This document shows positions 976 to 52,156 of a stretch of 64,000 bases of DNA, piece after piece; the first letter of the stretch is position 1, and every line of letters starts with the position of its first letter. The translations under genes were made by a program, and so were the position numbers. Source of the DNA: a virus (taxonomy: Duplodnaviria; Heunggongvirae; Uroviricota; Caudoviricetes); the IMG/VR virus record IMGVR_UViG_3300037261_000110. One strand, 5' to 3'. Below the pieces are notes generated by a model. The model searched no databases, was not told where the DNA came from, and saw nothing but the letters and a program-made list of their open reading frames with translations.

Positions 976-3879
976 CTATCTTAGCGGTCTACCGCGAAAA
1001 ATAGCCGTCATGATTGTAGGCTCCTCGAAGCCACGAGCGGCGATCTCCTTTTGAATTTGCTCAAGCCCGCCGATAAGGTTGCGAACTGGCGGTAATCCAA
1101 TATAATTTCGACCAGCCACTATACTTTTCGGTAAGGTACCGTCCTTTGGATTTGGCAAGGTACCTGCCTGAGAATCTGACAAGGTACCTGCTCCCTCAGA
1201 ATCTTTACGGTCCTCAGTCAGCTCTTGAAGCTTCGCCTCAACTTCCTTCCTCGCCTTTTCATTGTAGTTGCGAGAGCCAGCATAGCCGACGCCAGTCAGA
1301 CGCTTAGTACCGTACTTACGCTTCGGACGCGCCCAAGCGAGATATTGCGAAGTCGAGTCGCCCTGATCCTTGTACTTGGTCTCAGGCCAACCAAATATCT
1401 CAGCTTCATATTCTGCTAGCCACCCTGAATTCTCAGGTAGATGGACCAGATGCGCTTCCATCATTGGCGTCACACCATCCATGCGAAACTCTTTCGTAGC
1501 GTTATCAGTTGAGATAGCGATAACTGCACGCGGGCAATGTGGCGAGTTTGGATCGGATTGCTGCTGAATGTACTGAGTACCAGAACCCTTGTCTTCGACG
1601 AGAACACAATCCACATCTCTCAGCTCAGCAAGCTTGTTGAGCTTGTTTGCCATCTCAAAGAACTCCACACGCTTGCGGTAGACCTCGATCAAGTAGTGAT
1701 GGTTATCTTTAGTTTCATCCCAAATCGTTGCAACCGTATAAGCTGCACGCTCGTTGTTCTTGTTGGCAGTGTCGACTGACATAACACGACGCTTCACGTC
1801 TTTGCGCTCAGGACCGATGCGATAGCGTGTACTTGTGAACCATTCACGCTTGATGACGCCACCTTGCTCGTCGATCGGCTTGCCCATATACAAGCTGTTC
1901 CAATCCTTTGCGGATTGCTCAGACTTGATCTGCGCGAGAACATCTTTCGAAAAGAACTCAGGCCAAAGCGGATCACCAAACTGGCGTCCGATTGGATCGG
2001 GAACTGAATCGTCCAAGTAAATTGCCGGCAGGTTAATGATTTCCCAAGGGGCTCCATCGACCATACCTGCCTTGATCATCTTGTTTTCGGCCTCTAGGCG
2101 TCCGCAAAGATCGTCCGAATGCCAGCGCGTCGCCACTATGAACAGTGGAGCTTTGGGAAGCAGACGCGTAAGGTAGTCAGCCTTGAACCAAGCATAGGTT
2201 TTATTGCGGATCGTATCGGATTCCGCATCCTCTCTCGACGCAAATGGATCATCGACGCCAGCAAGATTAGTTCTGAAACCTGCAATTCCTTGTCCGACAC
2301 CACGTGTCAGATAAGCAGAGCCGTTATTTAGCACCCAATATCCGGCGGCGCGCGAAGCTGTGCTTAGCTGTATGTTCGGAAACACTTCAGCATAGCGATC
2401 AGACTCAATTATATCTCTGCACTTCTTACCAAATTCGTTCTCGACGAAGTTCTGGCTGTGTCCGGCTTGAAGATATTTCGTCTTTGGAGCAACACCCATC
2501 TTCCAGGTTGGAAATAAGCGCGAGGCATACGTCGAATTATGGGTTACAATATGTCCACGACCAACAAGAAACAAACCATCTTCGCGTTCGACAGTAATGC
2601 ATTGAGTCGATTGAGTTCCTTCAATCTTCTCGAACGAAATGTAACGTCCGTATTTACCTTCAAACTCAGTTGCACGACAGACCTTGCGCCATAGCTGAAA
2701 CGCACTCTTGAAGTAGAAAGACACGCGCCAATATTCACCGCAGTCTTTTCCGTTCAACATAGCACGTCCAGGGATGATTGAATTCTTCACCCCTAACGAA
2801 AACAGAAGTTCACTCACTGCGTCCCTCAAGCGAGAATTGGTTGAACAAAACGAACACTGTCCTGACGGCGAGACCGTTCCATCACTATCCATCAATCCTT
2901 GTAGAATTGATAAACGCACGTGATAAGAATTTCGAAGATACAGCTCAGGAACATGCTTATTGTTCAAGACACCAAGTGATACCAGATGCTTTCTAATGCC
3001 TAACAAACCAAATGCAGTCTTAGTTGTATGATCAGAAGTATGAACTCCGCACCATTCAATGCGCTCACGTACTTCCGGCTGATCCTTCACATCACATGTT
3101 ATTGTCGGTTGATCGGAATGCCCGTCGCCTAACCAATATCCAAGAACATAAGGATCAAGCGGAATCGTACGAGCCTTATATTCGACTGCTTCAAAATTTG
3201 GAAGTTTTGCACGGCGAGGAGATGTTCGATTGGCAAGATATTCAGTTGGATATGTCTTCCAATAATCACGCTTGCGATCTAATCGAACTGTCCACAAATG
3301 TTCCCCATCAACTAAAACAGCTTGTCCATCATCAGTGTATACACGATAGATTGTACGATTTTCAAACACCGGCGATTTTGCGATTATCTTAGTTGTTGTG
3401 CCGTCTGGTCCGTAAACCTTGTCACCGACTTTCAACTCAGCAATCGTTTTGTAACCGAGCGGAGTTGGAACCTTAGTATCCAGCACCATCGCTTTTGCAT
3501 GTCCTGGTGGCGCCGATATCATTAGACGCGAGTGCATTCCCTGTGACAAATCTGTCAGCTTATTCAGCATGAAGACATGCCAATCAGCCGGTGGTTCATC
3601 CGGAAAAATGTATTCACAATATGCAGTTAGGTCTTTTGGCGCGAGCTGAAGCAGAGCGCTCATGTACTCATTCGAAGTGCTTTCGTAAAGCTCTTCAAGT
3701 GCAATCAGCTGTTGCGCGGGATCGGTAGTACCTGTAAGTTCTATTATGAACTTAGTCTTTGTCGGCGTCAACATCGACTGACGTATCAGTGATGTTTCCA
3801 GCTCCGTCGCCACCATCTTCAGGTTCGTCAGTGACTTCCGTATCTGCTTGCGCGTCTTTTGCGAGATTATTTGCAGCAT
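976..3879 (-). CDS. terL: Terminase large subunit (TerL) interrupted by an in-frame intein. The extein N-terminus may start at the internal Met at 3816 or 3774
   Basis: Motifs: ATRWHSDDLCGRL, DGAPWEIINLP, FIVATRWH. A P-loop-like PPGHAK|S is split by about 319 aa that begin with a Hint block A and end in HN+S. Confidence 0.9.
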   Translation of the reverse strand: MLQIISQKTRKQIRKSLTNLKMVATELETSLIRQSMLTPTKTKFIIELTGTTDPAQQLIALEELYESTSNEYMSALLQLAPKDLTAYCEYIFPDEPPADWHVFMLNKLTDLSQGMHSRLMISAPPGHAKAMVLDTKVPTPLGYKTIAELKVGDKVYGPDGTTTKIIAKSPVFENRTIYRVYTDDGQAVLVDGEHLWTVRLDRKRDYWKTYPTEYLANRTSPRRAKLPNFEAVEYKARTIPLDPYVLGYWLGDGHSDQPTITCDVKDQPEVRERIEWCGVHTSDHTTKTAFGLLGIRKHLVSLGVLNNKHVPELYLRNSYHVRLSILQGLMDSDGTVSPSGQCSFCSTNSRLRDAVSELLFSLGVKNSIIPGRAMLNGKDCGEYWRVSFYFKSAFQLWRKVCRATEFEGKYGRYISFEKIEGTQSTQCITVEREDGLFLVGRGHIVTHNSTYASRLFPTWKMGVAPKTKYLQAGHSQNFVENEFGKKCRDIIESDRYAEVFPNIQLSTASRAAGYWVLNNGSAYLTRGVGQGIAGFRTNLAGVDDPFASREDAESDTIRNKTYAWFKADYLTRLLPKAPLFIVATRWHSDDLCGRLEAENKMIKAGMVDGAPWEIINLPAIYLDDSVPDPIGRQFGDPLWPEFFSKDVLAQIKSEQSAKDWNSLYMGKPIDEQGGVIKREWFTSTRYRIGPERKDVKRRVMSVDTANKNNERAAYTVATIWDETKDNHHYLIEVYRKRVEFFEMANKLNKLAELRDVDCVLVEDKGSGTQYIQQQSDPNSPHCPRAVIAISTDNATKEFRMDGVTPMMEAHLVHLPENSGWLAEYEAEIFGWPETKYKDQGDSTSQYLAWARPKRKYGTKRLTGVGYAGSRNYNEKARKEVEAKLQELTEDRKDSEGAGTLSDSQAGTLPNPKDGTLPKSIVAGRNYIGLPPVRNLIGGLEQIQKEIAARGFEEPTIMTAIFRGRPLR
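2536..3492 (-). mobile_element. Intein with a LAGLIDADG homing endonuclease domain, inserted in the TerL P-loop
   Basis: N-terminal block A-like (A)MVLDTKVPTPLGYKTIAELKVGDKV. Two LAGLIDADG motifs, LGYWLGDGH and LQGLMDSDG. C-terminus GHIVTHN followed by the +1 Ser. Confidence 0.8.
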
Positions 3880-4511: not shown

Positions 4512-5183
4512 TCACTTGGAAACGGTTTCCTTCCCATCGAATTCAATCACTGTTCTTGGTTGGTGTCCCTGATCGAACACACCATACATCGCAATCAGGC
4601 TGGCTTCCGCCCTGCCGTCGTCCTTTTTACGCTTGAACTGCGCGGCTGCACTTGGAAAGAGCTTCGAGGCACGCGCACGCGACAAATCCTTGTCAGCTCC
4701 GCATCCCATGCGCGCCTTCCAGATTGAAGGACGAACTTTGACAACCCTTAAGCGAAGTGATGCAGCAACGCCAAGAATCGTCCCAAGGCTGGCGCCGAAG
4801 GTGAATCCGTTCACACCACCATCGTGGACCATTCCCCAAACATCCTCTATATAAAGGATATTGCTCGGATGCTTACGCAGCCAACTGACGACCGCGTACG
4901 CATCAACCTCGCGTCGATTGGCAGTAGCTCCGAACACGTGGACTGGCATATCCAGGATGGCTAGCTTGCCCGCATACTCGTCAATCGCGGCTAGAGCGCC
5001 GGAATTGCCTGGATCAACTCCAATCGTCCAGAACCCGCTCCCAAGCCCGGCAAAGTTCTTGTCATCGACGAACCTCGCCTTGCAATCAGCCAGCGTCTTA
5101 CCATCTCCGCCCTCTGGCTCCGCCAGATGGCTTCCCGCTACGCGGGCCGAAACCACGTCGTTCGCACGATCTTCAGTAAACAT
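4512..5183 (-). CDS. RuvC-like Holliday junction resolvase
   Basis: Motifs IGVDPGNSGALAAID and ILYIEDVWG, and a basic C-terminal region. Confidence 0.65.
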   Translation of the reverse strand: MFTEDRANDVVSARVAGSHLAEPEGGDGKTLADCKARFVDDKNFAGLGSGFWTIGVDPGNSGALAAIDEYAGKLAILDMPVHVFGATANRREVDAYAVVSWLRKHPSNILYIEDVWGMVHDGGVNGFTFGASLGTILGVAASLRLRVVKVRPSIWKARMGCGADKDLSRARASKLFPSAAAQFKRKKDDGRAEASLIAMYGVFDQGHQPRTVIEFDGKETVSK

Positions 5184-6841: not shown

Positions 6842-7067
6842 CTGACTATTTCCTCTCACTGCCAAACCGGCTCGCCGAAATCGAGGCTGAGGAGCTAGCG
6901 CCCGATGGAAATCTCACCCCAGGTTTCTATCGGTTCTGCCGCAGCTCCAACGACACGCCGTCAGCGGCTGTGGCTCGCAGTCGTCCTAAGACACGTTCGC
7001 AAAGGCAGCGCTACGCCAAATATATCAGGACGCCGAACACGCTCAATCCGTCAAGGAGCTTCTAGCC

Positions 7068-29184: not shown

Positions 29185-29456
29185 AAGTGTCTAAAGTTGG
29201 CATGAGCATGCAGACTGCCATGGATATCTTGGATACGAGAGAGGGTCCATACGAAGTCAGTGATGTACTATCAGGATTCTTTCTCGACGGTGACGACGAT
29301 GGGCACTGGTACGTGATCCCCGTTACGATGCGCAAGCAGTGGCAGACGTGGATCAATCGCGCTGCGGGCGATCCTGAACCTTCCTGGGCGCTTCCGGTTG
29401 ATGATCCGTCGAAGGTGATCTTTCCTAGCTTCACGATACCTGATGACACACGCTAG
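29181..29456 (+). CDS. Hypothetical acidic protein
   Basis: 91-aa ORF. Confidence 0.4.
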   Translation: MKVSKVGMSMQTAMDILDTREGPYEVSDVLSGFFLDGDDDGHWYVIPVTMRKQWQTWINRAAGDPEPSWALPVDDPSKVIFPSFTIPDDTR

Positions 29457-29881
29457 TGAAAATTCTCGTTTGTGGTGGGCGCAAAATCACTGACAGGGGC
29501 TTTGTGTTCGATGGGCTCGATACGTTTGTCGAAGAATACGGCAAGCCTGACTTCGTTGTGCAGGGCTATGCTAAGGGGGTTGATAAGCTCGCTTTGCAGT
29601 GGGCAATTCTGCGTCGAATTCCGAACTCGGGGCAGACGTATCGTGCGGATTGGGCGGGCGAAGGCATCGCTGCTGGACCGATCCGCAACCGGCGCATGCT
29701 CAACGAGCAGCATCCAGATTTTGTGGTTGCATTCCCAGGCGACGCCGGCACTCACAATATGGTGGAACAATCCTTTTCATCCAACGTTTCAGTCGTTTTC
29801 GTGACCCTGGATCGCATTTTATGTGCGCCCGTGTCGTCCTTCGAAGCCTTGAAAGTGCAACTTGAGGAGTCTATCCTATGA
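29456..29881 (+). CDS. DUF2493/YpsA-like (SLOG superfamily Rossmann-fold) protein
   Basis: ILVCGGRKITDRGFVFDGLD ... QGYAKGVDKLALQWA ... ADWAGEGIAAGPIRNRRM. Confidence 0.55.
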   Translation: MKILVCGGRKITDRGFVFDGLDTFVEEYGKPDFVVQGYAKGVDKLALQWAILRRIPNSGQTYRADWAGEGIAAGPIRNRRMLNEQHPDFVVAFPGDAGTHNMVEQSFSSNVSVVFVTLDRILCAPVSSFEALKVQLEESIL

Positions 29882-30268: not shown

Positions 30269-30290
30269 ACGGCTTCGACGACCAACCCAA

Positions 30291-30329
30291 CGCCGCTAGA
30301 GAGTCAGCTCTCTGGCGGCGTTTATTTTT
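30291..30329 (+). terminator. Rho-independent terminator (13-bp stem, CGCCGCTAGAGAG/CTCTCTGGCGGCG, then TTTATTTTT)
   Basis: Seen directly. Confidence 0.75.
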
Positions 30330-30416: not shown

Positions 30417-30962
30417 ATGACCGCAAAGAAAATTTCTGTATCGTCGTCGGCTAACAGGTACGGTGGTCTTCCAGACAAGCTCTGGCAGATGCTGTCTCTC
30501 GCGCTCGACGATTTAGCTGCGGTCGAGAAGATGAAGGATAAGTACGTCGTTCGCATGGACATATGGTACATGCACGGCTATGTCAATGAAGCCGTGCGCG
30601 TGGCTAATCGTCCAGATTCTTTCGAGAAATACGACGACTTCATGGCAAAGCCGACAGAGATTTGCGGAATCTGTTTTGCCGGCGCTGTCATGGCTTGCAC
30701 ACTCGGCGACGGTCCTGATGATCTTCAGCCAGAAGATTTTCCCGAGTTTATCAAGTGCAAGCTTAAGGCTTGTGATATGGCTCGCGGCGGCGGCATGGAA
30801 ACGACGCTCAATACCTTTTACGGTAATTGGGATTGGGACCCGGATTCAAGCAAAACCAGAAAGCTGAAGAATGTTGTCGTGCCAGCGTATGATCGCGATC
30901 GCGCCGGCTTCAAGCGCGGGATTAACACAATGATCAAGCAGTTAAAGGCAGTGGACCTTTAG
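30417..30962 (+). CDS. Hypothetical protein
   Basis: 181-aa ORF. Confidence 0.55.
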   Translation: MTAKKISVSSSANRYGGLPDKLWQMLSLALDDLAAVEKMKDKYVVRMDIWYMHGYVNEAVRVANRPDSFEKYDDFMAKPTEICGICFAGAVMACTLGDGPDDLQPEDFPEFIKCKLKACDMARGGGMETTLNTFYGNWDWDPDSSKTRKLKNVVVPAYDRDRAGFKRGINTMIKQLKAVDL

Positions 30963-30964
30963 TA

Positions 30965-31219
30965 ATGAAGCAGGTATCAACCGAAGGTCCGATCCTTTTC
31001 GCGAAACATACCTTCAAGACGAAAAAAGGCGAGCGCAAAGTCGAGACTCCGGTCTTCGGCATCAATTATCTCGACAACTCACGCTATCCGCGCGGCAAGA
31101 TGAAGCCTTGTATGTATTCGATCCCGCTTCCAGTTGCGACGACTGCGCAGGACATATCCCACATCGCGGCTGCGGTCGCCAAACGTGAGCGCAAAAATGC
31201 CAGACGCGCAGCTCACTGA
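30965..31219 (+). CDS. Hypothetical protein
   Basis: 84-aa ORF. Confidence 0.45.
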   Translation: MKQVSTEGPILFAKHTFKTKKGERKVETPVFGINYLDNSRYPRGKMKPCMYSIPLPVATTAQDISHIAAAVAKRERKNARRAAH

Positions 31220-31448
31220 TGCCGAGCGTCACCGTTTCGTCGATTATCTCCGCCTCGAAGCCGCGAACGAAAAAGAACTTGTCAAGCAACTAGCAAAAGC
31301 GGCCGGTCCTGTGACGACTGGTATTGTGGAATCAGGTGTCCTCAGTGTCATGCCAGAAGCAATTCGGCGCCGCATGATGGAAATCATAGCGATGGAGTTG
31401 GTCGCTAACATGCTCGACGAGACGGAAAGTGTAGTGGTAGAATCATGA
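31197..31448 (+). CDS. Hypothetical protein
   Basis: 83 aa from the internal Met. Confidence 0.4.
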   Translation: MPDAQLTDAERHRFVDYLRLEAANEKELVKQLAKAAGPVTTGIVESGVLSVMPEAIRRRMMEIIAMELVANMLDETESVVVES

Positions 31449-31582
31449 TCGAATTCATCGGTGAAGCTGTAGTCATCGTCATCCTGGTAGTCGGGACGCT
31501 GAAAGCTCTACAGTGGATATCTCACAAACAAACGACTACCTATATCGTCGAAAATGAAAAGGACAAGGACGAACATGCCTAG
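31445..31582 (+). CDS. Small single-pass membrane protein (45 aa) immediately upstream of the SPFH gene
   Basis: ATGA overlap with the upstream stop; TM helix AVVIVILVVGTLKAL. Confidence 0.4.
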   Translation: MIEFIGEAVVIVILVVGTLKALQWISHKQTTTYIVENEKDKDEHA

Positions 31583-32501
31583 ATCAAATTTCGGTGACAG
31601 TGAAAGGGGCACACGCAGCCGTTCTCTTTCATTCGGTGGCATCGGTCTGATCGTTGTCGTCGTGCTCGGACTCATAGTAGCCTGGGATGGCTATTACACG
31701 GTCGATGCCACGCAGGCGGCGATCGTCAAGCAATGGGGCGCCCTTTCTGACGTGACCTTCGAGGGGCTGCATTTCAAGATACCGTTTGCGCAGACCGTGG
31801 AGTATATCGATCTGAAGCAACAGACCGATCTGTACAATCCGGTTGAGGGCTATACAGCTGATCAGCAAATCGCCAATATGTCGGTTGGCGTCCAGTGGCA
31901 CGTCAATCGAGATCGCGCCAGTCTGGAAGCGCTCTATCGGCAATACACTGACGTGCCCGGCGTCAAGGCGAAGCTGATCGACTCAAACCTGCCGACGTTC
32001 CTGAAGAATGTCTTCGGGCAGTACACGGCGGTCAAAGCCATTCAAGATCGTGCCAAGTTGAACTCTGATATCACGACGGCGATCGTCGCCTCTATCGGCA
32101 AAGACTCGCCGATACAGGTAGAGCACGTCAACGTACAAGATATCAAGTACGATCCGACTTATGAACGCGCCATTACAGAGCGCAATCAAGCCGAAGTCGC
32201 GGTTCGTACCAAGGAACAGGACTTGGCGAAGGCCAAGGTCGAAGCCGATATTGCTGTGGCGCAGGCGACAGGTCAAGCAAATTCTGCACGCGCTAAGGCG
32301 GAAGGCGATCGTGATGCCGCTATCGCCGCCGGCAACGGCAAGGCCAGCGCTATCAAGGCAGTCTCTGACGCGCTCACGCAGAATCCGTCCTATCTGGAAC
32401 TATCGAGAATTGAGAAGTGGTCCGGTGGGGTGCCCCAGCAAATGATCCCCGGTGCCACGGTGCCGTTCATCAATCTCGGACAACCGGTCGCGAGCAAGTA
32501 A
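31575..32501 (+). CDS. SPFH/band-7 (HflK/HflC/prohibitin-like) membrane protein
   Basis: N-terminal TM helix, SPFH core (VKQWGALSDVTFEGLHFKIPF...) and a long Ala/Gln-rich coiled coil. Confidence 0.7.
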   Translation: MPRSNFGDSERGTRSRSLSFGGIGLIVVVVLGLIVAWDGYYTVDATQAAIVKQWGALSDVTFEGLHFKIPFAQTVEYIDLKQQTDLYNPVEGYTADQQIANMSVGVQWHVNRDRASLEALYRQYTDVPGVKAKLIDSNLPTFLKNVFGQYTAVKAIQDRAKLNSDITTAIVASIGKDSPIQVEHVNVQDIKYDPTYERAITERNQAEVAVRTKEQDLAKAKVEADIAVAQATGQANSARAKAEGDRDAAIAAGNGKASAIKAVSDALTQNPSYLELSRIEKWSGGVPQQMIPGATVPFINLGQPVASK

Positions 32502-32531
32502 CTTCCTTTCCTTCCCGCGATCGGAAACTAG

Positions 32532-32560
32532 CCGGGGAGTAAAATCCCCGGCTTTTTTGG
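32532..32560 (+). terminator. Rho-independent terminator (GCCGGGGA-gtaaaa-TCCCCGGC, then TTTTTT)
   Basis: Seen directly. Confidence 0.8.
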
Positions 32561-33081: not shown

Positions 33082-33813
33082 ATGCGTCTGACTCCCCAAG
33101 ACATACTCGATTCACCAGAAATCACAGAACCCGCCATTCTCATTTTTAAGAGCGGCGCTGAGATTCTGGTGGATGATTTGTCACCCGTTCAAGATGACGA
33201 GACTGACAACTTCGTTGCCGACGACTTCGGCTATTGTCGCATGGTAGCGATCGATGAAGCAGGTGCTGTCCTGGTTTTTGACAGTGACGCTCTCGAATCG
33301 ATCACATTCAGCCCCAAAGACAGCGCCGCCATCATCGGCGACGAGTATGTCGAGCAGGGCGCTTCAGGTGAAGCAACGCTCGGCTATGCCGATTCGGCGC
33401 CTCCCATGTACGCCGACAACGGTGGCTTCGACGAAGACGAGTACATTGGTCCGGACGCCGATCCCGATGGCTATATCGACGAAGCGGACTTCGCCAATCT
33501 CGTCAAGCTCGGTTTGAGCGACATCGACGATAACGATGGCGAGGGCGAGGAATACGTCGTTGGTGGCTTCCGCGAAGACAACGGAATGCCGTACGCTCTC
33601 ACGGTCACGATGTTTGATCCCTTGACCGGCGAGGAAGTCGAGATGCCGGCGGAGCTTACGGCGGTCCTCGATTCCATGTTCCTCGGCCTCGGCGGCGAGA
33701 ATATCCCCGACAACGGCTTCCTGGACCCGTCAGCGCAAGCTGGTGCCGGCGTCGGCGACCATCATGCTCGCATGTCCGTTGAAGGCGCCGACACATGGCT
33801 GGATCGCTCCTAA
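33082..33813 (+). CDS. Highly acidic (Asp/Glu-rich) protein; candidate DNA mimic
   Basis: 243 aa with very high D/E content throughout. Confidence 0.6.
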   Translation: MRLTPQDILDSPEITEPAILIFKSGAEILVDDLSPVQDDETDNFVADDFGYCRMVAIDEAGAVLVFDSDALESITFSPKDSAAIIGDEYVEQGASGEATLGYADSAPPMYADNGGFDEDEYIGPDADPDGYIDEADFANLVKLGLSDIDDNDGEGEEYVVGGFREDNGMPYALTVTMFDPLTGEEVEMPAELTAVLDSMFLGLGGENIPDNGFLDPSAQAGAGVGDHHARMSVEGADTWLDRS

Positions 33814-34169
33814 TCGATCCCAAACTTCGATCGATCACGACAATCAAAATCATCAACAACGCGGATATCTTCCGCGTTGTTGGCGGTGATTTTGTCTCGA
33901 AGAGGACACCTGACAATAATCTGGTTCACTATCTTGTCGAACCAGATGCGAATGAATGCGGATTTTGCATTCGCGGCATGCACATGCCAGAAGATTTTAT
34001 TTTCAGTATGAGCGTCATTACCGGTTCTCGTCCTTATCAGGATTCTCCTTATTGGAATGCAAATTTCAGTTACTTTAATATTCTCAACAATGTCTTATTT
34101 TTGACAAGAACTGAGAGTAACGAATACATACTAACACAGCCGGAAAAGGTTGTTTGGAGTAGCAAATGA
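33795..34169 (+). CDS. Hypothetical protein with visibly AT-richer codon usage
   Basis: 124-aa ORF. Confidence 0.35.
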   Translation: MAGSLLIDPKLRSITTIKIINNADIFRVVGGDFVSKRTPDNNLVHYLVEPDANECGFCIRGMHMPEDFIFSMSVITGSRPYQDSPYWNANFSYFNILNNVLFLTRTESNEYILTQPEKVVWSSK

Positions 34170-34645
34170 ATGTAGATCGTCTTAGGCGGCTAGCAACCGC
34201 TTTGCGTAGTCGAGAGTTCCCCGAACATGTCGCTTTCAATCTTTGCTATGTGAAGCATGACTTCGCTTCCGGCGATCTGACAGTGGATGCGGACGGAGAT
34301 TTGTACGACACCAGCATGGATGTGAAACTTCACGTCAATGGAAAACAGCCGAAAGGCACTGACTGGTGCGGGACTTGTTGCTGCAATGCCGGCATGACCA
34401 TCATGCTTTTTGAACCGTTGACTTATTGGGACAAGTCACCACGTTTTCCAGCTTACCAGCTGGCGCAGAAGCTCCTCGGGCTTGACGACGACGAAGCGGA
34501 ACAGCTCTTCATTCCTGATCCTCGCTTCTGTCCGCTCGATTGGGAGAAAGTTACGCCGGAGCAATCTGCCGACGTGATTGACAATCTGATCGCGACCGGG
34601 AAGGTTGACTGGTTTGTAATCGCTCCGCTGGCAATGGCGGCATAA
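34166..34645 (+). CDS. Hypothetical protein
   Basis: 159-aa ORF. Confidence 0.5.
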   Translation: MNVDRLRRLATALRSREFPEHVAFNLCYVKHDFASGDLTVDADGDLYDTSMDVKLHVNGKQPKGTDWCGTCCCNAGMTIMLFEPLTYWDKSPRFPAYQLAQKLLGLDDDEAEQLFIPDPRFCPLDWEKVTPEQSADVIDNLIATGKVDWFVIAPLAMAA

Positions 34646-34656
34646 AAGGACGAACC

Positions 34657-34956
34657 ATGGCGATGCGCTTTGTTGACCCGTCCGTCTGGAATGCGGTCAA
34701 AGTTAAGGAAATGACGAAGAAAGAGATTCGTGCTCTGATCAAAGACGCGAAGAGTCTTCAATTCTTTGTTCATCCTGGGTACTGCACCTTTACCGACGAG
34801 ACAGTCTTTCGCGTCGAAGTGAGCAAGGCTTGGGCGAGCGAGTTTGTCACTACTGTCCCGGTTGATGATCTTCCAGGCATTCAGGTGATCGATTACGAGG
34901 GTGAAAAACTAATGCGTTTCTGGCCGAAGGGAACGTTCAACGTCATCTCGGGATGA
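34657..34956 (+). CDS. Hypothetical protein
   Basis: 99-aa ORF. Confidence 0.45.
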   Translation: MAMRFVDPSVWNAVKVKEMTKKEIRALIKDAKSLQFFVHPGYCTFTDETVFRVEVSKAWASEFVTTVPVDDLPGIQVIDYEGEKLMRFWPKGTFNVISG

Positions 34957-35354
34957 ATAATCATCTTGAATATCAGCGAGCTTGGACAAAGAAAAATCTC
35001 GCTCGCGTACGTGCTCAGCAGCGAGCATGGTATCAAAGAAACATAGAGACAGTACGGAAGAAAGCAAAAGAGAAAAACGCTTTACATCCTGAGATAAAGC
35101 GTAACGAAAAACTTCTAACGAGATACGGTATCTCGGCAGAAGAGTGGCAAAAACTCTTCGAGACTCAAGGGTCGTGTTGTGCTATTTGCCGGACGCCCGA
35201 ACCCGGTTCTCAGGATTGGCATACTGATCACGATCATGCGACTAAAGTGGTTAGAGGTATCTTGTGCTTTAATTGCAATATCGGACTTGGAAAGTTCAAA
35301 GAGAGTTCCGATTTGCTATTAGAGGCGGCAGACTATTTGGACAGGTTCAGATGA
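34953..35354 (+). CDS. Endonuclease VII-family (His-Me finger) nuclease, copy 1
   Basis: CCAICRTPEP...DHDHATKVVRGILCFNCNIGLGKF matches the T4 gp49 Endo VII core. Confidence 0.7.
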   Translation: MNNHLEYQRAWTKKNLARVRAQQRAWYQRNIETVRKKAKEKNALHPEIKRNEKLLTRYGISAEEWQKLFETQGSCCAICRTPEPGSQDWHTDHDHATKVVRGILCFNCNIGLGKFKESSDLLLEAADYLDRFR

Positions 35355-48413: not shown

Positions 48414-50678
48414 ATGAAAATAGAGACCGCCGAGAGAGTAGCCGAGTTTGCTGGTTTTCTTGAAGAGAAAAGCTTCACGATAGCAGCAAACGGTAAAGCT
48501 TTTCGGGTCCTCATTGATAAACTTTACTCAAACGTTCATCAAGCTATTGTACGCGAGCTGATGACGAATGCTTGGGATGCGCATGTTTCGGCGGCAAATC
48601 TAAAACCTTTCGAAATTCACGTGCCGACAGCGTTTGAGCCCTTCTTTTCTATTCGTGACTTCGGCTGTGCAATGACTCACTCAGAAGTCATGAACGTCTA
48701 CTCGACGATATTCGAGTCAACCAAGGATGCTCGTGACGATCAGGTCGGCGCCTGGGGCCTTGGCTCAAAAACACCTTTCGCCTACACTGACACTTTTGGC
48801 GTGCAAGTCTGGCTAGATGACCGCCATAGGGTGTATAATGTCTTCATAGATGCGACCGGTGTCCCAAAAATCGCCCTGGCGCTCGACGAAGAGAATGACG
48901 GTGCCGCGAACGGCGTTGAGGTATCCTTTCCAGTCGGTGTCAAAGATGCCGGTCTTTTTCGAACCGCGCTCGAAGTGGTTAGCATTGGCTTCGAAGTCAA
49001 GCCAAAATTTTCTGGTTCGCTCAATGTTCTGGAATTAGAGAAGCGTCGTCAAGGTGCTGGCTGGTTCACGTTCGTCTATTCCAGTGGACCAACATGGTTG
49101 AAAAAGCCGGTTGCTCGGGTCGGCTGCGTCCTCTATCCGATCAAGCTGGACGTGGTGTGTGATCTCATAAGAGACAAAGCGACGAAGCCAGAGTGCTGGC
49201 AGCTTTTGTCCAGCGTGCATGGTTTTCCGGGCACGCCAATGATCCTCGATTTCCCAATTAGCTCGATCGAAGTCACAGCCAATCGTGAAGACTTATACTA
49301 TTCGGAACGAACTGTCAAGTCTATTGTTGATAGATTCGAGACAATCGTTCAGGAAATGAAAGCTGAGTTTTTAGCTAATATCAAGAAAGGCAAGACTCTC
49401 TATGAAGTGAATATGGAAGTCCTCGAAGTCTGCGAGATGTTCGCCGACGTTGCCTCTGGCGTCTCTAGCTATCTCCGTGATTTTGCTCGGCAACAGAGCT
49501 TCAAAGGACGAAAGCTTCTTCACAAAATCGTTTTTCGACATAGATACAAAACGGTTGAGGAAAAGAACGCTGCCGGTGAGGCAGTCATTTATCGAGTTCC
49601 GACTCGTTACAATAGCATTCAATTCGTCTACTATCTAGGCTCGAAATTCATTCGTCAACCAGGACTGCAATTCTGTGATTCTGAGGAAATGTCTTGGACT
49701 CCGCGTGTTACCGACTTCTTCGTTGAGCTGCCGGGCGAAAAGGGTAAGCGCGTGCCGTACGCTGCTCGCCGCATTCGTCACGAGCGCAACGAAGCCGGCA
49801 CGACCGTGCGCCACGATCTTATGTGGATCAAGACACCCTCACTCTCGGACCCTCACTTCGTAAAAATGTGGATCGGGCTCGGGCGCCCGCCTTATAAACT
49901 GGTCAACGATCTGGTGAGACCGCCGGGCATTCCGACCGAGCGCTATATAACCCCGATGCGCATTTATAATTCGAATGCAGATACGTGGGAAAGGTATGAC
50001 GATTTCGACGTTGAGAATGACGCCGGGTTTTATGTGATGCTCAACTGCGGGCTTCCGGAGCATATAAAGAGCGTGAAGCTCTGCGATCTGATCGGATTTC
50101 TGGAATCAAAGCGCGCGATCCACAATGCCCGTCATATCATTGGCATCCCAAAGAGCCGCAAGTCAGTTCTCTCAAAATCCGATCAATGGATTGACATGGT
50201 TCCCGTCCTTAAAGCAGCCTACCGCAAAGCGCTCAACGTGAAGCAGGCAGCGGTCAGTTTCAGTGTTAAAGAGATCACAATCGACAAAGGGGATCAAGGC
50301 ACGTTAGAAAGATTGAACCGCAAGCTTGGTAGGTTTGATCCGGCGTCGCCGTTCGTTCAAGCGATTAAAGCCTATGATCGGTTGGGAGCGATTGAGGCGA
50401 CAGCTGCCGAATTTAAGAGTGCCTGGAATCATCGATGGGTGCTTGATTATGAGGAGCGTGCGAAGCTCGACGAAGAATACAACGCGCTCGCCAAAAGTGA
50501 CCCGGCGCTGGTTTCTGAGATTGGCTCTATCAAGTCTGCCATCGAAGGTGTTTTTCAAGCCTATCCTTTACTGCAAAAAGTGCCATATCCCGATCAAGAT
50601 GCTTTGAAAGCACTCGACGACTATATTGTAGCGATGGACTGTTTTAGAGGGGCGCTTGCTAGTGGCTTACAAAAATAA
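48414..50678 (+). CDS. rIIA: rIIA-like protein (GHKL ATPase-domain protein)
   Basis: FRVLIDKLYSNVHQAIVRELMTNAWDAH matches the T4 rIIA N-terminus (VVRELITNMIDAH); also GAWGLGSKTPF. Confidence 0.8.
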   Translation: MKIETAERVAEFAGFLEEKSFTIAANGKAFRVLIDKLYSNVHQAIVRELMTNAWDAHVSAANLKPFEIHVPTAFEPFFSIRDFGCAMTHSEVMNVYSTIFESTKDARDDQVGAWGLGSKTPFAYTDTFGVQVWLDDRHRVYNVFIDATGVPKIALALDEENDGAANGVEVSFPVGVKDAGLFRTALEVVSIGFEVKPKFSGSLNVLELEKRRQGAGWFTFVYSSGPTWLKKPVARVGCVLYPIKLDVVCDLIRDKATKPECWQLLSSVHGFPGTPMILDFPISSIEVTANREDLYYSERTVKSIVDRFETIVQEMKAEFLANIKKGKTLYEVNMEVLEVCEMFADVASGVSSYLRDFARQQSFKGRKLLHKIVFRHRYKTVEEKNAAGEAVIYRVPTRYNSIQFVYYLGSKFIRQPGLQFCDSEEMSWTPRVTDFFVELPGEKGKRVPYAARRIRHERNEAGTTVRHDLMWIKTPSLSDPHFVKMWIGLGRPPYKLVNDLVRPPGIPTERYITPMRIYNSNADTWERYDDFDVENDAGFYVMLNCGLPEHIKSVKLCDLIGFLESKRAIHNARHIIGIPKSRKSVLSKSDQWIDMVPVLKAAYRKALNVKQAAVSFSVKEITIDKGDQGTLERLNRKLGRFDPASPFVQAIKAYDRLGAIEATAAEFKSAWNHRWVLDYEERAKLDEEYNALAKSDPALVSEIGSIKSAIEGVFQAYPLLQKVPYPDQDALKALDDYIVAMDCFRGALASGLQK

Positions 50679-51147
50679 AGATGATGACAAAAAATGGAGA
50701 GAAGCTAACGAGGATCATCTAAAGCAATATAAAAGAGACTACTACAGACGGAAGTATGGAAAAAATCGTGAAAAAATGTGTCCTAAACCTAAAAGACGCA
50801 CAGATCACTTGAAGAGATACGGTATCACTATAAATGAGTGGGAGAAGATGTTTGAAAAACAGGGTAAAATATGTGCTCTGTGTGGATCAGATGTCCCTGC
50901 CAAACACTCAAATCGATGGAATACGGATCATGATCACGATACAGGGATAATTAGAGGAATTATTTGTTGCAGTTGTAACAATGGATTAGGTCTATTCAAG
51001 GATGATCCAGTGCTACTGCGCAAGGCCGCCAACTATATAGAACTAAGCAAACCTCTTAATTTTTTACTTGACAATCGGAAAAAACCCGAGCATTATGCCG
51101 AAACTCAAACCATAGAGACGGACAGCAATGAGCACGATCCCGCATAG
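50656..51147 (+). CDS. Endonuclease VII-family nuclease, copy 3, inserted between rIIA and rIIB
   Basis: CALCGSD...TDHDHDTGIIRGIICCSCNNGLGLF; AT-rich codon usage. Confidence 0.75.
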   Translation: MLVAYKNKDDDKKWREANEDHLKQYKRDYYRRKYGKNREKMCPKPKRRTDHLKRYGITINEWEKMFEKQGKICALCGSDVPAKHSNRWNTDHDHDTGIIRGIICCSCNNGLGLFKDDPVLLRKAANYIELSKPLNFLLDNRKKPEHYAETQTIETDSNEHDPA

Positions 51148-52156
51148 CATTACCGCCAATTCGATCTCGGTTCTGATCGATTATCGGATGCGCGTCATTC
51201 CGAAGTCGTCTGTGAACTTCGATGCAATTCGAGCCGAACTCGGCAAGGGCGAGAAGGCGGATATCGGCAAGCTCAAGTCGCTGGTTGACATTCCATCGTT
51301 CATCGCTCGGGTCACGGCTGGACGTATTCGCGTCTCCGACGACGAAGTGTATTTCAAGTCGGAAAAAGTCAACAGCTACGCGGCTCAGCGTCTTTTGGAG
51401 CACCTGAGAGACGGTGATTCGATCGAACCGCTTGCCAAGCTGCTCGACAAGCTGATGGACAATCCGAACCCGGCACTCCGCAACGATCTGTGGCTGTGGA
51501 TCGAACAAGCCAATCTGCCGATTGCCGGTGACGGTGATATCTTGGCCTTCAAAAAGGTCGATCCGGAATATAAGTCGTTCCACAAGAACACCGATGGCAC
51601 GTACCACGTTCATCGTGTCGGAACACGCGTTCACATGCCACGTGAGCATTGTGACCCGAACCGTCATTCGGTTTGTTCGACCGGGCTGCACTTCTGTTCA
51701 TATGGCTATCTGCACACGTATGAAGGAACCAGCGGGCACGTCGTTATCGTGAAAATCAACCCACGTGACATTACCGCGATTCCGTCTGACGCCTCCGATC
51801 AAAAGGGACGCTGCTGTCTCTATGAAGTGGTCCAGGAAATCGACCAGGAGGAAGCTAAGCAGTTTTTCAGGGGTAACGTCGTCTCGCACGTCGGCACTTA
51901 TGACGAGCCAGAGCCCGACGAACCGCCGGTGGATTGGGACGATCATGAAGGCGGCTACGAGATCGGCGAGGGAGCTGCCGAGCCAGAGGCTGTGGTCAAT
52001 GCCAGTGATGACGGATTCACGATCGTCATCGGCAGCAAGCGCGTCAGCCGCCAGCACCTGAATGATACCGTCGCCAGTCTCGGACAGCGCGGCGCCGCCA
52101 AGAAGCTCGGCATACCACGCACGTCGCTTCAGGACGCACTCAAGCGCATGAAGTGA
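51128..52156 (+). CDS. rIIB: rIIB-like protein with a C-terminal HTH
   Basis: CSTGLHFCSYGY ... VVIVKINPRDITAIPSD ... CCLYEVVQE matches the T4 rIIB core. Confidence 0.75.
   Translation: MSTIPHSITANSISVLIDYRMRVIPKSSVNFDAIRAELGKGEKADIGKLKSLVDIPSFIARVTAGRIRVSDDEVYFKSEKVNSYAAQRLLEHLRDGDSIEPLAKLLDKLMDNPNPALRNDLWLWIEQANLPIAGDGDILAFKKVDPEYKSFHKNTDGTYHVHRVGTRVHMPREHCDPNRHSVCSTGLHFCSYGYLHTYEGTSGHVVIVKINPRDITAIPSDASDQKGRCCLYEVVQEIDQEEAKQFFRGNVVSHVGTYDEPEPDEPPVDWDDHEGGYEIGEGAAEPEAVVNASDDGFTIVIGSKRVSRQHLNDTVASLGQRGAAKKLGIPRTSLQDALKRMK

Follow-up and report, generated by a model that had tools for sequence, protein, structure and literature searches.

Much current structural work is devoted to SPFH cages (HflK/C, prohibitin, stomatin, flotillin, erlin), and the definition of their clients is still unclear. 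Among the cage formers are HflC, HflK, PHB2, erlin, stomatin and QmcA, the last of which faces the cytoplasm. The described systems closest to the locus reported here are Escherichia coli HflK/HflC, a cage that modulates FtsH (PDB entries 7vhp, 7vhq, 7wi3 and 9cz2), the prohibitins PHB1/PHB2 (8rrh, 9o9z), and the SPFH-NfeD operons (QmcA-YbbJ, 8z5g; YqiK-YqiJ; the archaeal stomatin PH1511 with PH1510), in which a membrane-protein gene adjoins the SPFH gene and supplies its dedicated partner. Here, we have analyzed an SPFH gene and the small membrane-protein gene directly upstream of it on a 64,000-nucleotide stretch of DNA of a Caudoviricetes virus (IMG/VR record IMGVR_UViG_3300037261_000110). 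This whole stretch is called the window below, and the 45-amino-acid (aa) single-transmembrane (TM) product of the small gene is called the mini-TM protein.

A 2006 paper lists SPFH genes in T4-like phages (PMC1524935), and later ones mention them in Rak2-like jumbo phages (PMC7760394), in Schitoviridae (PMC13239085), in Bruynoghevirus relatives (PMC8540360) and in others. Each paper calls the function of these genes unknown; speculated roles extend from control of lysogeny, by analogy with HflK/C, up to adsorption or DNA entry. Literature searches retrieved neither functional work on a phage SPFH protein or on gp19/gp20 of coliphage N4 nor any mention of a small partner. An original prediction, made from the letters of the window alone, had described the pair as an SPFH/band-7 protein with a mini-TM partner, and had considered phage SPFH proteins uncommon and uncharacterized.

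Results

A translationally coupled gene pair

The two genes form a conserved, translationally coupled pair, and the SPFH protein has a prohibitin/HflK-C-type fold; both points are firmly established. All features of the locus described in this and the following sections are located on the + strand, unless they are named as surroundings. The 45-aa open reading frame (ORF; 31445-31582, product MIEFIGEAVVIVILVVGTLKALQWISHKQ...) is followed by the SPFH ORF terminating at 32501. The longest SPFH frame starts at 31554 and encodes 315 aa. ATG 31575 is the likely start, because it is preceded by AAGGA...AAGGAC, a Shine-Dalgarno sequence located inside the mini-TM ORF, and because the resulting 308-aa form (31575..32501) is the publicly called protein: an identical product was found in 21 public metagenome contigs (P0001), the longest of 152,899 bp. 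This ATG and the stop codon of the mini-TM ORF share an 8-nt overlap (ATGCCTAG). The ATG of the mini-TM ORF in turn overlaps the TGA of the preceding 83-aa ORF (ATGA).

The SPFH protein has a prohibitin/HflK-C-type fold

A search of Pfam identified Band_7 (PF01145) with E = 7.4e-28 and 98.2 bits, the cut-off being 23.6; the match covers residues 49-228 of the 315-aa form and positions 2-173 of the 176-position profile. PHROG 200, labelled 'lipoprotein', was matched with E = 1.8e-53 by residues 25-310 over profile positions 79-361 of 379. The assignment to SPFH/band-7 proteins of the HflK/C-prohibitin type, which failing profile searches might have overturned, is hence upheld by these searches and by the fold matches given below. 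As to the subtype, which was to be distinguished by profile hidden Markov models (HMMs), HflK and HflC were the only NCBIfam models matched, and all matches remained far below the equivalog cut-offs.

In a sequence search of the PDB, prohibitin-2 was the best match (E = 2.5e-9), although the phage protein is only about 20% identical to PHB2; it was followed by HflC, HflK, prohibitin-1 and, weakly, QmcA, and flotillin was absent from the matches. Solved HflK/C-FtsH complexes (7vhp, 7wi3, 9cz2) were among the top matches. Phage homologues carry the name 'prohibitin family protein' in GenBank.

An AlphaFold2 model was built from 17 homologues (mean predicted local distance difference test score, 79.7). 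It comprises the complete architecture of cage formers, with membrane anchor, alpha-beta SPFH domain, long helix and C-terminal tail. The N-terminal anchor helix (residues 20-38; 31632..31688) has an Arg-rich segment ahead of it and a predicted N-in/C-out orientation. The SPFH/Band_7 alpha-beta domain (residues 40-192; 31692..32150) is delineated by Pfam, the model and Foldseek. It is followed by a single 76-residue helix (residues 194-269; 32154..32381), the counterpart of the helices forming the cage wall in HflK/C and prohibitins; the long coiled coil announced in the original prediction corresponds to this helix. Close to the C terminus, the motif K-W-x-G-x-[LV]-P-x-x-M-x-P-G-x-x-x-P-F (32418..32471) was recognized, with W282, G284, P287 and P297 invariant in the 17 homologues. 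Its W-x-G-x-L-P part is common to bacterial prohibitin-family proteins of Bradyrhizobium and relatives.

Foldseek returned full-length matches of the model to HflC (7vhq_G, the top match, E = 6e-17), PHB2 (8rrh_B), HflK, erlin, stomatin and QmcA. With E. coli HflK/HflC, the phage protein shares the full-length fold of anchor helix, SPFH domain, long wall helix and C-terminal cap region. Unlike HflK/HflC, the phage locus has one SPFH gene instead of a K/C pair, and it has a 45-aa single-pass partner. The SPFH-NfeD operons likewise consist of two genes, but the phage partner is a single helix and has no OB-fold domain. An NfeD-like neighbor, which had been suggested as worth looking for, was not detected at sequence level: the NfeD domain (PF01957) gave no Pfam match at E ≤ 0.01 in nine proteins of the locus, and none at E ≤ 1 in the mini-TM proteins or in the 84-aa and 181-aa proteins encoded further upstream (p84, p181).

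In three homologues of 400-425 aa (P0008, P0026, P0028), the usual anchor helix is preceded by an N-terminal extension of some 120 residues with a basic stretch and two or three additional hydrophobic helices. The extension may be a fused counterpart of a membrane partner; no homology to the mini-TM family was detectable in it.

The mini-TM protein belongs to a conserved family

The 45-aa ORF is a real gene in a conserved family. Its product has one TM helix at about residues 5-21 (nt 31457-31507; Kyte-Doolittle maximum over 17 residues, 2.44) and a charged tail predicted to be cytoplasmic. Gene finders called the ORF in every public copy. Three diverged relatives with SPFH identities of 78%, 63% and 61% have a single-TM ORF of 44-59 aa at the same position, which was missed by the gene finder in one of them. 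The ratio of nonsynonymous to synonymous substitution rates (dN/dS) of the ORF was 0.14-0.6 overall and 0.14-0.21 for the closer pairs.

For a wider survey, 96 loci were collected from IMG/VR contigs, GenBank phages and the relatives. The IMG/VR contigs were found with a narrower alignment of homologues, which yielded at least 498 confirmed SPFH contigs, 80 of which were fetched; a search of IMG/VR with the single SPFH protein as query returned no relatives. Dereplication at 80% SPFH identity left 54 loci (350 kb, 9755 segments). In 39 of them, an ORF of 25-120 aa with a TM segment ends no more than 250 nt upstream of the SPFH anchor helix; anchors placed randomly in these loci give a rate of 9% (p = 4e-29). 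Most of these ORFs follow the pattern M-x(2-4)-[LIF]-[IL]-G-[GAE]-x-V-...-G-..., after which comes a K/R-rich stretch and often an acidic tail.

An HMM was constructed from 27 mini-TM ORFs of other viral contigs, with the clade of the window left out. Among 1912 six-frame segments of the window, the 45-aa ORF was the sole significant match (E = 3e-7, 27 bits; next best, 1.3). Across the 54 phage loci, the HMM (E ≤ 0.01) found a match in 34, including locus L016 after inspection, and none elsewhere in the 350 kb. All 35 family matches in the 54 loci are located directly upstream of SPFH on the same strand; for most members, the distance from the ORF end to the SPFH start is about 30 nt or less, and in L016 the ORF overlaps this start. 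The SPFH anchor helices, which are rich in Gly, Val and Ile, received no score from the HMM, which argues against an artefact of composition. In the bacterial set, one of 80 loci with SPFH homologues (934 kb) gave a match, and this was a prophage already present in IMG/VR. A chromosomal SPFH homologue of Bradyrhizobium stands alone, without a mini-TM partner. In the sets sampled, the mini-TM family is firmly associated with SPFH loci of phages.

Eight mini-TM proteins were scanned against Pfam and PHROG without a significant result; matches to holin, spanin and Insulin_TMD families were all at E > 0.01, far under the curated cut-offs, and were rejected. In IMG/VR contig 3300009095_000063 (L051:2649-2954), the ORF immediately before SPFH is a fusion of a mini-TM family member with an N-terminal methylation motif of the type-IV-pilin kind (PF07963, E = 5.9e-7, over the gathering score). 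In the T4-like phage 44RR, ORF097c with an N-methylation motif is located beside the SPFH gene ORF098c (PMC1524935). In view of these two cases, partners of a pseudopilin-like kind may recur as a second variant.

The two membrane helices are predicted to be antiparallel

Charges on both sides of the TM helices were counted. The N-terminal flank of 31 mini-TM proteins comprises 0-6 residues with 5 K+R in sum, as compared to 99 K+R and 26 D+E in the 15 residues after the helix. By the positive-inside rule, an N-out/C-in orientation is predicted for the mini-TM proteins. In 54 SPFH proteins, 90 K+R and 30 D+E were counted in the N-terminal flank, and 63 K+R and 112 D+E in the 15 residues after the anchor helix, which predicts an N-in orientation with a periplasmic SPFH domain, as in HflK/C. 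The helix of the mini-TM protein and the SPFH anchor helix are therefore predicted to be antiparallel.

Occurrence in other phages and the N4-type arrangement

SPFH homologues were found in 204 of 50,697 GenBank phage records, in addition to the IMG/VR contigs mentioned above. Phage SPFH genes, noted since 2006 (PMC1524935), are thus uncommon in a relative sense only; that they are functionally uncharacterized agrees with the genome papers (PMC7760394, PMC13239085, PMC8540360). Within this known and widely annotated phage family, the SPFH gene of the window is not unusual. Matches in Stx2a-converting phages and in phiP27 were restricted to the helical C-terminal 40% of proteins annotated as serine protease, and these were not counted as SPFH homologues. 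The homologue of phage CBB (GenBank KU574722) is annotated as 'structural protein'.

The partner is annotated 'hypothetical' or 'putative membrane protein' in phages RHEph10 (gp166), V1VFA-S (_159) and Pasto (_010), while Mesorhizobium phage Cp1R7A-A1 carries it without annotation. The N4-like Agrobacterium phage OLIVR3 has an unannotated 38-aa single-TM partner and an intact 283-aa Band_7 ORF (L185:1098-2068). In its GenBank record (MT234340.1, about 15.5-16.5 kb), two coding sequences named 'band 7-like protein' are placed over the SPFH gene on the opposite strand; these are probably mis-annotated. No partner was detected in phages Skarpretter, AD45-P1, Serratia BF, Kc166B and RHph_N1_10.

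A related arrangement was found in coliphage N4 (L182:3058-4093). Like the SPFH protein of the window, N4 gp20 belongs to PHROG 200 and Band_7 (E = 1e-23), and its start overlaps the end of the gene for gp19, a small membrane protein (68 aa) whose C-terminal tail is basic (KKRMRRKHV). gp19 differs from the mini-TM protein in having two helices, and gp20 has a lipobox (LTSC) in place of the anchor helix, which is consistent with an exported domain. In phage 4MG (L183:716-1954), gp233 is a lipoprotein-type SPFH protein without TM helix, and the small protein gp235 encoded upstream has two TM helices and a basic tail. In the Vequintavirinae (4MG; Mydo, L184:746-1993), a gene for a 54-aa soluble protein, ribbon-helix-helix-like in look, is located between the two-TM protein and SPFH. 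The sequences of N4 gp19 and 4MG gp235 have no detectable similarity to each other, and gp19 was not recognized by the mini-TM HMM. A TM-anchored SPFH protein with a one-helix partner and a lipid-anchored SPFH protein with a two-helix partner both amount to two helices per pair; this rule is no more than suggestive, as the second form was seen in two lineages, N4 and Vequintavirinae.

Organization of the five-gene block

The pair occupies the end of a block of five tightly coupled genes (30417-32501) between two terminators. The block begins with a 181-aa protein (p181; 30417..30962). The 84-aa ORF of p84 (30965..31219) starts 2 nt past the end of p181 and is overlapped by an 83-aa ORF (31197..31448; the start was taken as ATG 31197), to which the mini-TM and SPFH genes are joined. 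Synteny of the block was seen in the diverged relatives L001, L002 and L004, with p84 conserved in these three only, and the 83-aa protein present in L001 and absent from L002 and L004. The three upstream proteins adjoin the SPFH pair in the clade of the window only; they are therefore lineage-specific neighbors located outside the widely conserved module.

The original prediction had placed strong terminators on both sides of the pair, and such hairpins do flank the block. Upstream, an intrinsic-terminator-like hairpin (30289..30329; hairpin 30289-30322, 15-bp stem, loop of 4, followed by TATTTTT; -25.1 kcal/mol) closes the preceding transcription unit. The downstream one (32530..32560; hairpin 32530-32553, 9-bp stem with 7 G-C pairs, TTTTTT; -20.0 kcal/mol) is located 29 nt past the SPFH stop codon. 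Both are among the five or six strongest sites of hairpin plus T-run on the + strand of the 64-kb window. Their positions are kept in L001 (78% SPFH identity), with a counterpart by position at 4747-4777 and a near-identical hairpin at 6959-6982, but not in L002.

No sigma-70-like promoter was found between the upstream terminator and the first gene, a consensus that may not be the phage's own promoter type. The only sigma-70-like site close to the pair, at 31414-31443, which ends 2 nt before the mini-TM ATG, was rejected, since such sites occur at chance level (9 found, 5.5 +/- 2.5 expected). A promoter motif shared downstream of strong terminators was sought, and none was found. The GC content of the block (0.51-0.53) equals that of the flanks and is uniform over the surrounding array of co-directional small ORFs.

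The family of p181 is widespread and has no assigned function. It comprises 625 representatives at E ≤ 1e-3 in an exhaustive search, proteins of 130-190 aa. The conserved motif is C-x-x-C-F-A-G-S-V-M-A, in which C-x-x-C is invariant and A-G-...-A-x-x-L nearly so. No Pfam family and no PDB relative was found for the p181 relatives, and no homologue of p84 in the word-indexed database. p181 and a 159-aa protein (34166-34645), both with Cys-rich motifs, were considered as paralogues and rejected (BLASTP E = 1.5).

Genomic surroundings

The window belongs to a large phage with genes for large terminase, primase, rIIA, rIIB, helicase and a T7-like DNA polymerase. It looks lytic, given rIIA/rIIB and its own polymerase, primase and helicase. 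No isolated phage is a close relative: in the polymerase, Microcystis phage Mwe-JY26 shares no more than 50% identity and phiCbK-like phages share about 47%, and a megablast search of GenBank phages with the region was without a match. PADLOC, applied to the SPFH protein, the mini-TM protein and their neighbors, gave no defence-system match and two insignificant hits only. No endolysin was found next to the pair in the window by Pfam and PHROG scans.

The 141-aa protein encoded shortly before the block (29456-29881) has a YAcAr/YspA-cpYpsA-related SLOG domain (PF10686, E = 8.5e-13; PHROG 289, 'GTP-binding domain') and is conserved in L001 and L002. Downstream, a 13-bp perfect inverted repeat (TCAACAACGCGGA...TCCGCGTTGTTGG; 33853-33883) inside ORF 33795-34169 has a terminator score on both strands. 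An Endonuclease VII-domain protein (PF02945, from the annotation of identical contigs) is encoded at 34953-35354, 2.5 kb downstream of the SPFH gene. The rIIA/rIIB homologues (48414-52156) follow 16 kb downstream of it; in several other phages (RHph_N1_10, SH-Ab 15599, N4), the SPFH pair is located 1-6 kb from rIIA/rIIB. The large terminase (976-3879, - strand) is unusually long with 966 aa; its residues 7-867 match the 760-position profile of PHROG 38, and it may contain an insertion, e.g., an intein or an extra domain.

Discussion

We favor, at about even probability, a reading in which the pair is a two-gene membrane module of a lytic phage, translationally coupled and formed by the last two genes of a five-gene operon, whose products build an HflK/C-like cage with the mini-TM protein as an integral subunit. 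By analogy with HflK/C and the prohibitins, the SPFH protein would oligomerize into a ring- or cage-shaped assembly at the host inner membrane, on its periplasmic side, and the mini-TM protein would be a stoichiometric membrane subunit of this assembly. The helix of the mini-TM protein would lie antiparallel against the SPFH anchor helix; with virtually no periplasmic residues, this protein would supply the cytoplasmic face of the assembly by means of its basic juxtamembrane tail. During early-to-middle infection, the assembly may fence off a patch of the inner membrane, so that membrane clients would be sequestered or shielded. Host FtsH would be the best-precedented candidate among such clients.

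Several points weigh against this reading. Its cage, the contact between mini-TM protein and SPFH protein, and FtsH or any other client are inferred by analogy, and the topology is predicted from the positive-inside rule alone. The scores of the SPFH protein are far below the equivalog cut-offs of HflK (TIGR01933, 49.1 bits against 159.4) and HflC (TIGR01932, 35.5 against 134.4), and the PRK10930 and PRK11029 models gave 29-34 bits against cut-offs of 427-660; the protein is therefore HflK/C-like and not an orthologue. A second Band_7 gene, as needed for a K/C pair, was not found in the block or in eight neighbors scanned. No family member was detectable in 20 of the 54 phage SPFH loci, and the partner is thus not obligatory. 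The bacterial set is narrow in taxonomy, consisting mostly of Bradyrhizobium and relatives. Furthermore, mass spectrometry of purified virion preparations from Eneladusvirus phages and Sajous1 has revealed some phage SPFH proteins (PMC7760394, PMC10892097), which could reflect a different role or contamination by membranes.

A broader version of the reading, which we regard as tentative and rather unlikely, takes the pair as a phage-specific two-component system for membrane compartments, so far unrecognized, with exactly two antiparallel helices per unit, spanning many unrelated lytic phages: N4-like, Rak2-like jumbo, RHEph10-like, Vequintavirinae and the phage of the window. The two helices would come from the mini-TM protein and the SPFH anchor, or both from a partner of the N4 gp19 type next to a lipid-anchored SPFH protein. 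Its cage would either capture a host inner-membrane machine such as FtsH or armor the membrane against premature collapse, e.g., as brought about by pore formers of abortive infection.

The cage might, more specifically, mimic HflK/C and capture host FtsH, thereby stabilizing FtsH substrates of phage or host, such as small phage membrane proteins, LpxC or sigma-32, while the tail of the mini-TM protein contacts cytoplasmic FtsH. The closest solved relatives by sequence and fold include the HflK/C-FtsH complex and prohibitins, which are partners of the m-AAA protease; the predicted orientation is that of HflK/C; and HflK and HflC were the only NCBIfam models matched. The distance of these scores from the equivalog cut-offs and the single SPFH gene speak against such mimicry; furthermore, nothing in the locus points to FtsH, and lytic phages have no known need to tune substrates of the cII type. 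We consider FtsH capture unlikely.

Less credit still is given to the idea that the mini-TM protein itself acts as a small peptide that perturbs the membrane, like a holin, antiholin or type I toxin, and that the SPFH cage restrains or times it, with lysis timing or the membrane potential as the target. One helix with a highly charged C-terminal tail is the generic build of holins and type I toxins, and the pair is located within a few kb of rIIA/rIIB in RHph_N1_10, SH-Ab 15599 and N4. Yet no holin, spanin or toxin family was matched significantly in PHROG or Pfam, the pair is usually found amid early and middle genes of nucleotide metabolism and not in lysis cassettes, and no endolysin adjoins it in the window.

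Superinfection exclusion or competition is about as improbable, or slightly more so. The assembly would block DNA entry or receptor-associated inner-membrane functions of rival phages. The pair is part of a host-takeover-type array of small early genes, the N4 pair directly follows gp18, which is annotated 'superinfection exclusion', and a role in adsorption or DNA entry has been speculated upon in a genome paper (PMC13239085). This support comes from context alone; the pair does not resemble any known exclusion protein, and PADLOC gave no hit.

The original prediction had considered the pair an independently expressed, moron-like unit. Strong terminators on both sides agree with this view, but a recently acquired two-gene moron serving host or lysogen is very improbable: five coupled genes are located between the terminators, the block is syntenic together with both terminators in L001, its GC content is that of the neighbors, no promoter-like site follows the upstream terminator, and the phage has lytic-type replication and rII genes. 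That the 45-aa ORF is a chance open frame in the SPFH 5' leader, as its shortness, the lack of a strong Shine-Dalgarno sequence of its own and the lack of a Pfam or PHROG family might suggest, is hardly credible in view of its calling in all public copies, its conservation in three diverged relatives with low dN/dS for the closer pairs, its recognition by an HMM built without its clade, and the ATGA overlap typical of translational coupling.

We return to the favored reading of a coupled membrane module. Most phage SPFH proteins come with a dedicated, coupled mini membrane protein, which is lacking in the bacterial homologues sampled, and this partner provides a first specific handle on their role. 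The recurrent mini-TM partner is undescribed as far as we found and apparently restricted to phages. Its recognition as a family gives an annotation to dozens of ORFs of 33-65 aa that are 'hypothetical' or uncalled at present. The system is small, consisting of two genes and possibly of a homo-oligomer plus one helix, and an analogous pair exists in the model coliphage N4, which makes it testable. If the capture of FtsH or the protection of the membrane proved true, the pair would be a new type of phage device for host takeover or counter-defence, and it would provide a minimal model of how SPFH cages engage transmembrane partners.

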